From an uncultured Lentisphaeraceae bacterium (GTDB lineage: Bacteria; Verrucomicrobiota; Kiritimatiellia; RFP12; UBA1067): a stretch of 64,000 nucleotides of DNA. This document shows, piece after piece, positions 51,320-52,714 of this stretch. The notes under the pieces were generated by a model. That model saw nothing but the letters and a program-made list of their open reading frames with translations. It was not told the DNA's origin and made no database searches. Location: NCBI GenBank assembly GCA_964386865.1, contig CAYLUN010000004.1, positions 28,123 through 92,122 of the forward strand. Direction: 5' to 3'. How positions within the stretch are numbered: the first letter of the stretch is position 1; the number at the start of each line of letters is the position of its first letter. The translations under genes and the position numbers were made by a program.

Positions 51320-52378
51320 ATGAGCGGTGTGTGCTGCGGCGGAACGTGCGGGGCGGGAGCTTCTGCGCGGTGGGTCAACGGATACTGGGCTACGGCTGCC
51401 GGAGGCGTGCCGCGCGTGTCCACGCGTTGGACGTGGCGGGACACGCTGGGAGCGCGGTCGGTCTGCTGGGGCGCGCGGCGCATGCGGTACGCCGTGCCGC
51501 CGGGCTTATACGCGGTCGGGGCGCCGACTCCGGGCTCGCCGCTGCTCGCGACGGCCAACTACAAGCTCTCCTTCGACCACGTGCGGCGGGCGCTTGCCGG
51601 GTTTGACGCGTGGGTGCTGGTGCTGGACACCAAGGGCGTGAACGTCTGGTGCGCGGCGGGCAAGGGGACGTTCGGAACGGAGGAACTGGTCGGGCGACTG
51701 GGCGCCTGTGGCGCGGAGCGGGTTGTCGGCCACCGTACGATCATCGTCCCTCAGCTTGGCGCGCCGGGCGTGGCGGCGCACGAGGTGAGCCGCCGAACGG
51801 GGTTCAGGGTCATCTATGGGCCGGTGTACGCGAAAGACCTGCCCGCGTTTCTGAACTCCGGCATGCGCGCCACGCCGGAGATGCGGCGCGTGGGCTTCAC
51901 GCTGCGGGAGCGGCTCGCCGTCACCCCGATCGAGCTGGTTCACCGGCTCATTCCTGCGCTGATCGCGCTGGCGCTGTTTCTGGCGTCGTCGGGTCTGGGG
52001 AGGAGCGGATACCGGCTGGAAGCGGGGCCGTGCGCCTGGGTCGCGCTGGCGGTCGTGTTCAACACGCTTGCCGGGATCGTTCTGACGCCCGCGCTCCTGC
52101 CGTATCTGCCGGGCCGGTCTTTCGCGCTCAAAGGGGCTGCGACCGGGGTGGCGCTGGGCGCTGCGCTCGCGTGGCTGTGGCCGTTCGGATGGCTGGCGGG
52201 CGCGTCGGTTGGGCTGCTCAGCGTGTCGGCCTGTTCGTTTCTGGGGCTGATGTTCACGGGTTCTACGCCGTACACCTCGGCGTCCGGGGTGCGCCGCGAG
52301 CTGGCCTGGGCGCTGCCGGCGCAGGGAGGCTTGGCTGCGGCGGGGCTTGCGGGATGGACCGCGTCGCTGTTTCTGTGA
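51320..52378 (+). CDS. hgcA: mercury methylation corrinoid protein HgcA
   Basis: Cap-helix motif GVNVWCAAGKGTFGT. The N-terminal half is CFeSP-like (…PPGLYAVG…LLATANYKLSFD…), and the C-terminal half has about five hydrophobic helices. Confidence 0.88.
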   Translation: MSGVCCGGTCGAGASARWVNGYWATAAGGVPRVSTRWTWRDTLGARSVCWGARRMRYAVPPGLYAVGAPTPGSPLLATANYKLSFDHVRRALAGFDAWVLVLDTKGVNVWCAAGKGTFGTEELVGRLGACGAERVVGHRTIIVPQLGAPGVAAHEVSRRTGFRVIYGPVYAKDLPAFLNSGMRATPEMRRVGFTLRERLAVTPIELVHRLIPALIALALFLASSGLGRSGYRLEAGPCAWVALAVVFNTLAGIVLTPALLPYLPGRSFALKGAATGVALGAALAWLWPFGWLAGASVGLLSVSACSFLGLMFTGSTPYTSASGVRRELAWALPAQGGLAAAGLAGWTASLFL

Positions 52379-52387
52379 GGTGTTACA

Positions 52388-52714
52388 ATGTCGATGACCT
52401 ATCTGAAAAACGTGGTTACGCTGCGGCTGAGCTGCGACGCCTGCGTCGGCTGCGGCCGCTGCCTGGAGGTCTGCCCGCACGGCGTTTTCGCGCTGGACGC
52501 GGGCAAGGTTCGGGTCGGCGCGCGCGACGCCTGCATGGAGTGCGGCGCCTGCGCCCGCAACTGTCCGGTCGGCGCGCTGTTTGTGAAGAACGGCGTGGGC
52601 TGCGCGGTCGGCATCCTGAACGCGAGGCTGGGGCGTACGTCGTCCTGTTGCGGGGAAGGCCAGCCGTGTTGCTGCTCCGGAGAACCGGATGTGAAAAATA
52701 GAGGAGGCGCGTGA
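52388..52714 (+). CDS. hgcB: mercury methylation ferredoxin HgcB
   Basis: CVGCGRCLEVCP and CMECGACARNCP (2x[4Fe-4S]) plus the Cys-rich tail SSCCGEGQPCCCSG. It starts 10 nt after hgcA. Confidence 0.88.
   Translation: MSMTYLKNVVTLRLSCDACVGCGRCLEVCPHGVFALDAGKVRVGARDACMECGACARNCPVGALFVKNGVGCAVGILNARLGRTSSCCGEGQPCCCSGEPDVKNRGGA

Follow-up and report, generated by a model that had tools for sequence, protein, structure and literature searches.

An hgcA-hgcB gene pair with proposed ars-type regulation in an uncultured Kiritimatiellia bacterium

The subject of the present study is a 64,000-nucleotide (nt) stretch of DNA, hereafter the window, comprising positions 28,123-92,122 (forward strand) of contig CAYLUN010000004.1 in assembly GCA_964386865.1 of an uncultured Lentisphaeraceae bacterium (GTDB lineage Bacteria; Verrucomicrobiota; Kiritimatiellia; RFP12; UBA1067). 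Two adjacent open reading frames (ORFs) of this window, 51320-52378 and 52388-52714, had been interpreted in a first-pass annotation as hgcA and hgcB, the gene pair of mercury (Hg) methylation, and both are present at these positions on the + strand. We conclude, with a probability of about 0.8, that they represent a genuine and intact hgcA-hgcB pair of an uncultured Kiritimatiellia bacterium, for which we propose a mechanism like that of Pseudodesulfovibrio mercurii (Desulfovibrio desulfuricans) ND132, whose HgcA is experimentally verified, and a regulation of the ars type. This reading is directly supported by family membership, key residues, gene architecture, host taxon and the conservation of a promoter and the site adjoining it. 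The pair belongs to a run of four genes:

50924-51316, + strand: arsR2, an ArsR/SmtB regulator with a GELCVC thiolate motif (NF033788, 89.9 bits, cut-off 55; Pfam HTH_5)
51320-52378, + strand: hgcA, a corrinoid protein of 352 residues with cap-helix Cys111 and a five-helix membrane domain
52388-52714, + strand: hgcB, a 2x[4Fe-4S] ferredoxin of 108 residues
52714-52995, + strand: an AhpD/CMD-like small thiol protein of 93 residues with HCQPC and a C-terminal GCC...CPCG (Pfam CMD 42.7 bits, TIGR00778 36.5 bits)

Curated profiles uphold the identity of both proteins. HgcA scored 399 bits against the HgcA equivalog model NF040863 (cut-off 275; profile positions 1-324 of 325 covered), with an HgcA_corrinoid match of E = 1.4e-119, and HgcB scored 111.8 bits against NF040864 (cut-off 99; profile positions 1-93 of 93), with an HgcB_ferredoxin match of E = 1e-32. 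The models of possible paralogues failed: the fused HgcAB-like model NF043039 (cut-off 285) gave 192.5 bits for HgcA and 50.8 bits for HgcB, and the CFeSP (corrinoid iron-sulfur protein) gamma-subunit model (cut-off 306) gave 61.5 bits for HgcA. Pfam returned generic domains only, CdhD (35 bits) in HgcA and Fer4. Among 8000 candidates scored, 7987 were HgcA homologues at E <= 1e-10.

Residue conservation was assessed by aligning the window proteins with 80 HgcA and 80 HgcB sequences from related genome loci (81 each). HgcA carries ...LDTKGVNVWCAAGKGTFGTEELV..., which contains the cap-helix motif that the first-pass annotation had singled out, N108-V-W-C111-A-A-G-K115; its N, V, W, C and K are 100% conserved, and all family-invariant columns are kept in the window protein. 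HgcB has the two CX2CX2CX3CP motifs of a 2x[4Fe-4S] ferredoxin, CVGCGRCLEVCP (C19/C22/C25/C29-P30) and CMECGACARNCP (C49/C52/C55/C59-P60), numbered as in ND132 minus 1 (ND132: 20/23/26/30 and 50/53/56/60), and among these cluster cysteines seven are kept in 81/81 sequences and C22 in 80/81. The equivalent of ND132 Cys73 is C72, within GVGCA, which is a Cys in 76/81 sequences and a gap in the other 5. The vicinal-Cys tail that had also been described corresponds to SSCCGEGQPCCCSG, with cysteines C87, C88, C94, C95 and C96. Mutagenesis in ND132 indicates that HgcA Cys93, the counterpart of Cys111, HgcB Cys73, Cys94/95 and the transmembrane domain matter (PMC7305189, PMC11588087). At its N-terminus, HgcA has a Cys-rich, low-confidence tail (residues 1-17, 51320-51370; MSGVCCGGTCG) that lies outside the NCBIfam HgcA model; at least two Cys ahead of the corrinoid domain were found in 43/81 HgcA sequences and 10/14 of the closest relatives.

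Roughly five hydrophobic helices had been anticipated in the C-terminal half of HgcA, and hydropathy and structure prediction both give five. Hydrophobic segments were located at approximately 207-227, 238-261, 270-288 and 291-313, followed by a weaker last one, and the AlphaFold2 model (29 homologues; mean predicted local distance difference test (pLDDT) 83.7, predicted template modelling score 0.76) comprises an alpha/beta corrinoid domain and then five long helices, 202-224, 235-258, 268-286, 291-313 and 321-351, mostly with pLDDT >83. Its low-confidence parts are the first 15 residues, segment 113-116 beside the Cys and the loop 314-320. In a PDB library, Foldseek ranked 9a0b_A first, an integrative model of ND132 HgcAB (44% identity, 325 columns, E = 7e-20), with CFeSP corrinoid domains next. 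A sequence search of the PDB with HgcA returned only CFeSP chains (E = 3e-8) and no experimental HgcA structure, and the same search with HgcB returned generic polyferredoxins only. In the CFeSP alignment, HgcA residues 57-179 correspond to chain residues of about 318-440, that is, the C-terminal corrinoid domain of CFeSP only, and the residues opposite NVWCAAGK are SVLTAWAAGK, with no Cys.

The closest HgcA homologues are 73-80% identical proteins from metagenome-assembled genomes (MAGs) labelled Kiritimatiellae, Verrucomicrobia, Lentisphaeraceae or 'bacterium', and the 14 nearest loci in GTDB species representatives (60-76% HgcA identity) belong to Kiritimatiellae/Kiritimatiellia, Verrucomicrobia, Lentisphaeraceae and Victivallales MAGs. 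The exact protein is absent from those representatives, and because the best match reaches only 76% identity the source appears to be a further species-level member; in public assemblies, an identical HgcA occurs only on short contigs of runs SRR21424281-90, with the same neighbours. In a neighbour-joining tree rooted with one CFeSP corrinoid domain, HgcA grouped with 14 sequences of the Planctomycetes-Verrucomicrobia-Chlamydiae (PVC) group (94/100 bootstrap), distant from CFeSP. Among paralogues the tree covers CFeSP, represented by that one outgroup; exclusion of the fused HgcAB-like proteins rests on hidden Markov model (HMM) cut-offs and the unfused architecture.

A PVC-group host had been put forward as a possibility, and the RpoD of the window shares 80-90% identity with proteins whose labels are almost all Kiritimatiellae or Kiritimatiellia. 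Judged by RpoD, the host is a Kiritimatiellia (PVC) bacterium. Genes for rnfC, GTP-dependent phosphoenolpyruvate carboxykinase and anaerobic ribonucleotide reductase all occur in the window, consistent with an anaerobic fermenter. The window has a GC content of 65%, and base composition around hgcAB (GC fraction 0.65-0.68) is like that of the remainder and gave no signal of horizontal transfer; GC at third codon positions (0.85 in hgcA, 0.83 in hgcB) also matches other window genes.

The two genes are separate ORFs with a TGA stop between them and a Shine-Dalgarno sequence each (GAGGTG for hgcB). The gap between them is 9 nt (52379-52387), hgcB thus beginning 10 nt past the last base of hgcA, which agrees with the ten nucleotides first reported, and hgcB is directly downstream of hgcA in all 80 related loci. 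Upstream, the arsR2 frame is open from a GTG at 50888, with the ATG at 50924, preceded by the Shine-Dalgarno sequence GAGGGG, as its likely start (public assemblies call a protein of 130 residues), and its stop codon lies 3 nt before the hgcA ATG. Downstream, the ATG of the AhpD-like gene overlaps the hgcB stop codon (TGATG). Given these intergenic gaps of 3, 9 and -1 nt, arsR2, hgcA, hgcB and the AhpD-like gene would form one translationally coupled operon. Among the 14 closest loci, arsR is adjacent in 12 and a P1B ATPase with 80-84% identity to that of the window is nearby in three (L002, L008, L012).

The CxxC motif of the AhpD-like protein is invariant. Its gene follows hgcB in 6/14 PVC loci and 0/66 more distant loci, and a role as a general hgcAB accessory was rejected since it is restricted to the PVC clade. 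At locus L009 it shares one open frame with an amino-acid permease, not with a methyltransferase. A literature search found no paper linking CMD/AhpD to hgcAB. Gene coupling, together with the NCBIfam record of AhpD domains fused to arsenite methyltransferases, invites the speculation that the CxxC protein might service the thiols of HgcB or the product.

The operon is preceded by a sigma-70-like promoter and an inverted repeat (dyad), and the same combination recurs ahead of the following transcription unit:

50869-50897, + strand: sigma-70-like promoter of the arsR-hgcAB operon from a consensus scan (TTGACA, 17 nt, TG-extended TAAATT)
50896-50911, + strand: operator-like site TTCGCCACATAACGAA with arms ATTCG/CGAAT, abutting the -10 element; putative ArsR binding site
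53058-53086, + strand: second sigma-70-like promoter from the consensus scan, ahead of a small Cys-rich gene (TTGACG, 17 nt, TG-extended TATATT)
53086-53101, + strand: second copy of the operator-like site, TTCGACACATAGCGAA, directly after the -10 element

Within 50600-55900, the consensus scan found two sigma-70-like sites against 0.4 expected, both of them intergenic. The 16-nt dyad pattern TTCGNCACATANCGAA was first noticed by eye on comparing the two promoters and tested afterwards, and has two occurrences in the window at <=2 mismatches against 0.24 expected. Short inverted repeats reported by a repeat tool in intergenic regions were not the conserved element, and terminator matches in the 50600-55900 region were no more numerous than chance.

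Comparison with other genomes indicates that this arrangement is conserved. In the 13 closest loci (L001-L013) the dyad is exact in 7/13 and present with <=2 mismatches in 13/13, located 15-40 nt upstream of arsR, hgcA (L002, L008), arsD (L004; ArsD model score 119 bits, cut-off 90) or an S-adenosylmethionine (SAM)-dependent methyltransferase gene. When 17 promoter regions are aligned, three blocks are largely invariant, namely the TTGAC core of the -35, the TG-extended -10 and the dyad (arms ATTTCG/CGAAAT), and the spacer is unconserved. The shared architecture, TTGAC(A/G), a variable 17-nt spacer, a TG-extended -10 and the dyad TTCGNCAYATAACGAA, was found in PVC genomes and on at least 120 metagenomic contigs, ahead of arsR-hgcAB, small-Cys/P1B-ATPase, arsR-acr3, arsD, arsP and methyltransferase operons.

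When metagenomes were scanned for the promoter-plus-dyad pattern, at least 120 stretches matched, with 121 sites among the matches listed, and genes were counted downstream on the same strand within 5 kb. Among these 121 sites, ArsR was encoded at 92 and Acr3 at 53, followed by HgcA (13), the P1B ATPase (13), HgcB (12), ArsD (11), the small Cys-rich protein (11), a homologue of the first gene without a family match described below (55769-56437; 11) and ArsP (9). Several contigs among the matches listed have the order arsR-hgcA-hgcB-acr3, or hgcAB followed by arsD. Judged by its distribution across several operon types, the dyad probably serves a CVC-type ArsR group as operator, and its sharing, together with the promoter, by acr3, arsD, arsP and methyltransferase operons suggests that hgcAB may be one cargo module of an ars-type regulon. 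Searchable papers yielded no description of a promoter and operator-like site common to these operons, of the AhpD-like gene or of the small-Cys/P1B-ATPase module. At L004 (4702-5562), L007 (4683-5543), L138, L145 and L184, the gene directly upstream of arsR-hgcAB encodes a class I SAM-dependent methyltransferase of 286 residues with weak UbiE/ArsM similarity, and it too follows this promoter and dyad.

The GELCVC motif of ArsR2 is invariant in the ArsR proteins of 13 members of the hgcAB clade and corresponds to the alpha-3 As(III) site of R773 ArsR, in which two of three cysteines suffice; ArsR2 has two of these three.

From these features, and by analogy with ND132, we infer catalysis, the methyl donor, ArsR binding and the inducer as follows. 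HgcA would be a membrane-anchored corrinoid protein whose cap-helix Cys111 ligates cobalt ('Cys-on'), and the two-[4Fe-4S] ferredoxin HgcB would reduce the corrinoid to Co(I). Co(I) would then receive a methyl group from SAM, yielding CH3-Co(III), and the methyl group would pass to Hg(II), probably presented by the HgcB thiols (C72 and the C-terminal cysteines), to form methylmercury. For ND132 HgcAB, SAM rather than methyl-tetrahydrofolate is the methyl donor, and Co-S ligation has been demonstrated (PMC11588087). Expression of the arsR2-hgcA-hgcB-AhpD-like operon would be driven by the sigma-70-like promoter with its -10-abutting dyad, at which a CVC-type ArsR is predicted to repress the operon and to be relieved on binding a thiophilic metal(loid), for which As(III) is the likeliest candidate. 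The adjacent small-Cys/P1B-ATPase/arsR3 operon would be under the control of the same promoter and dyad.

The operon is situated in a metal(loid) island (45.7-58.7 kb) that contains three ArsR genes, an ArsP-type permease, an ArsE-like thioredoxin, a P1B ATPase and Acr3. Besides the genes already described, its members and the neighbouring genes are:

45692-45985: ArsR1, the third ArsR, 33% identical to ArsR2 and heading a thiol-based metal(loid) cluster
46088-48918: ArsP-family permease, MTH895/ArsE-family thioredoxin-like protein, thioredoxin and CcdA/DsbD-type membrane protein
49153-50778: sodium:solute symporter
53156-53332, + strand: Cys-rich protein of 58 residues (DGCGPGCGCH), also called as a 58-residue gene in public assemblies
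53414-55351, + strand: P1B-type heavy-metal ATPase lacking an N-terminal HMA domain, with a CPC motif in the transmembrane region (TIGR01525, 585 bits)
55387-55776, + strand: arsR3, paralogous to arsR2 at 66% identity; it follows the P1B ATPase gene by 36 nt
55769-57167, + strand: two genes without a family match (55769-56437 and 56442-57167), between arsR3 and acr3
57594-58745, + strand: acr3 arsenite efflux permease (TIGR00832, 451 bits, cut-off 282.8)

The ArsR1 cluster (45692-48918) constitutes a separate thiol-based metal(loid) module without the dyad. The 58-residue Cys-rich protein has no Pfam or NCBIfam match; its gene also precedes the ATPase gene at L002, L012 and in metagenome operons, and the product is a possible metal-binding partner of the P1B ATPase. 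For the ATPase itself, Cu, Cd and generic models all pass, and its best solved relatives are CopA and Cd-ATPase structures with about equal scores. CopA-type pumps carry MxxSS, and at that location the window protein has an unusual ...FQEAGCVTVVVSS... segment. Neither of the two genes between arsR3 and acr3 has a Pfam or NCBIfam match. The product of 55769-56437 is membrane-anchored with an N-terminal CGPGCNCG and a C-terminal CGAGGCGPSGC, 56442-57167 encodes a polytopic membrane protein, one helix of which holds a CC pair, and in metagenomes homologues of both are again located behind this promoter and dyad.

Elsewhere in the window, a probable phosphate-transport cluster (37897-42647, - strand; PhoU, ABC ATPase and permease scanned) precedes the arsenic island at a distance of a few kb, and a CitMHS/ArsB-superfamily permease is encoded at 42904-44181. 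An Rfam scan of the whole window had a thiamine pyrophosphate (TPP) riboswitch as its sole match (RF00059, 63.5 bits; 15068-15171), upstream of a gene at 15233-16102 and thiC (16167-17462), with no cobalamin or SAM riboswitch near hgcAB, and tRNA genes were not found in the window. At 61796-63994, an ORF that continues past the window end encodes a large protein in which two Laminin_G_3 (concanavalin-like lectin) domains occur together with one Laminin_B domain.

Several points weigh against a methylating, ars-regulated hgcAB. Its capacity for Hg methylation is extrapolated from an identity of approximately 44% to the verified ND132 HgcA. The cap-helix segment 113-116 has low confidence in an AlphaFold2 model that was built without the cofactor, the HgcA tree is a neighbour-joining tree free of fused HgcAB-like sequences, the promoter scan is a consensus match only, and the dyad could be bound by ArsR3, which is 66% identical to ArsR2. 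In Lake Mendota, Kiritimatiellia hgcA is abundant and weakly transcribed, and sulfate reducers dominate transcription (PMC11984097). No isolate of the Kiritimatiellia or of any other PVC lineage has been shown to methylate Hg, and the experimentally validated methylators belong to the Desulfobacterota, Firmicutes and methanogens; the earlier remark that methylation is mostly predicted in such lineages agrees with this literature. The physiological substrate of HgcAB is also disputed, with a 2026 preprint proposing halomethanes.

Three other explanations were considered. That the genes contribute little methylmercury in nature, ArsR keeping the operon off in a fermentative host of low transcriptional activity, is tenable while falling short of probable. 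Kiritimatiellia have been credited with about 65% of hgcA genes and sulfate reducers with >50% of transcripts (PMC11984097), and the dyad abuts the -10 element, a position typical of repression; however, arsR-like genes and their hgcA were transcriptionally active in the Lake Mendota study, and transcript levels in ND132 predict the rate of methylation poorly. It is somewhat unlikely, though worth entertaining, that a true hgcAB homologue serves metal(loid) detoxification or another corrinoid reaction (on arsenic species, or halomethane dehalogenation) as its native job, with Hg methylation as a side reaction. Such a role would fit the ars-rich island around hgcAB, the hgcAB genes inside ars-type operons on several metagenomic contigs (arsR-hgcA-hgcB-acr3, or with arsD after), the promoter and operator-like site that hgcAB shares with acr3, arsD and arsP operons, and the dechlorination of CCl4 by heterologously expressed HgcAB in the 2026 preprint. 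Arsenic changes the expression of hgcAB in ND132, whose deletion mutant shows raised sensitivity to As(V), but not to As(III); no arsenic or halomethane chemistry is known for any PVC HgcAB, and co-regulation does not identify a substrate. A native role other than Hg methylation would, moreover, be compatible with Hg methylation, every residue needed for it being present.

The remaining alternative, a non-methylating paralogue of the CFeSP (AcsC/CdhE) type or of the fused HgcAB-like family, has in its favour a corrinoid domain homologous to CFeSP, detected by Pfam CdhD and among PDB chains, and a partial match to the fused model. Both models nevertheless stay far below their cut-offs (61.5 vs 306 and 192.5 vs 285 bits) where the HgcA model is passed, CFeSP lacks the cap-helix Cys, the window protein has five C-terminal helices, the two genes are separated by a stop codon and have their own ribosome-binding sites, and in the tree the CFeSP outgroup lies far away. 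An identity as CFeSP or as a fused paralogue was excluded on curated cut-offs and architecture, and we consider it extremely improbable. Returning to the genuine hgcAB pair, a bolder extension would make Kiritimatiellia-lineage hgcAB a regular cargo of a true As(III)-responsive ars regulon, with thiophilic metal(loid) handling, and not mercury specifically, as the selected role of HgcAB and its AhpD-like partner. We regard this as unlikely; if true, methylmercury from the most abundant freshwater hgcA carriers would be gated by exposure to arsenic or soft metals.

Kiritimatiellia hgcA, an arsR-like gene ahead of it and acr3 nearby are already known, and the window does not represent a new kind of system. 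The conserved promoter, the operator-like site and the regulon census are added here, and lend sequence-level support to a link between hgcAB and arsenic resistance. In some eutrophic lakes and anoxic basins, Kiritimatiellia reportedly outnumber all other hgcA carriers, with their hgcA poorly transcribed. As the operon is intact and has a likely promoter and operator-like site, the hgcAB switch in Kiritimatiellia is directly testable.

Among known systems, the window most closely parallels ND132 in its separate hgcA and hgcB, the arsR-family gene directly upstream, the NVWCAAGK Cys, the five-helix domain, the two CX2CX2CX3CP motifs (with a one-residue offset), the Cys73 equivalent and the C-terminal cysteines. 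The upstream arsR-family gene of ND132 encodes a regulator of hgcAB that responds to arsenic and S-adenosylhomocysteine. The window differs from ND132 in that its HgcA is only about 44% identical and begins with a Cys-rich tail (CCGGTC), that the tail of its HgcB contains five cysteines against two in ND132, and that it comes from a fermentative Kiritimatiellia bacterium whereas ND132 is a sulfate reducer. ND132 ArsR2 has a four-Cys site, the window ArsR the classical alpha-3 CVC site. Further differences are the coupling of hgcB to an AhpD-like gene and the adjacent ars and P1B-ATPase genes; in ND132, hgcAB has no other ars genes at its flanks.

Hgc genes of the Kiritimatiellia and other PVC lineages have been known since 2019-2020 from sulfate-impacted lakes, Lake Mendota and the Baltic and Black Seas (Jones 2019; Peterson 2020, 2025; McDaniel 2020). 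In Lake Mendota, PVC bins without isolate relatives made up half of hgcA coverage, and a survey of about 1,000 hgcA genomes includes Kiritimatiellia/PVC carriers. Peterson et al. 2025 described arsR-like regulators ahead of many hgcA genes, most commonly in Kiritimatiellae, with acr3 or arsC nearby, and associated such a regulator with lower hgcA transcription. The window resembles this PVC/Kiritimatiellaeota HgcA cluster in its host class, a divergent HgcA without an isolate, an arsR-like gene in first position and the presence of rnfC, and departs from searchable published accounts in its AhpD-like gene, in the small-Cys/P1B-ATPase module and in the promoter and operator-like site that the operons have in common.

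With fused HgcAB-like proteins (NF043039) the window pair shares homologous corrinoid, membrane and ferredoxin regions (192.5 and 50.8 bits), but it consists of two polypeptides, and both scores, as well as their sum, are below the cut-off of 285. The fused HgcAB-like proteins that were tested are not known to methylate Hg. The large subunit of CFeSP (AcsC/CdhE) has a homologous Rossmann-like corrinoid domain and cap helix (window residues 57-179), whereas the window protein has the cap-helix Cys111, and its aligned region is preceded by 56 residues and followed by five helices. CFeSP has N-terminal [4Fe-4S] and TIM-barrel domains and no membrane domain, and uses methyl-tetrahydrofolate. Finally, as in ArsR-controlled ars operons, the window has a repressor with an ELCVC As(III) site, a dyad beside the -10 element and arsR as the first gene, and is predicted to be autoregulated; unlike arsR-acr3 and arsD operons, its cargo is hgcAB and an AhpD-like gene, instead of or besides an arsenite pump.

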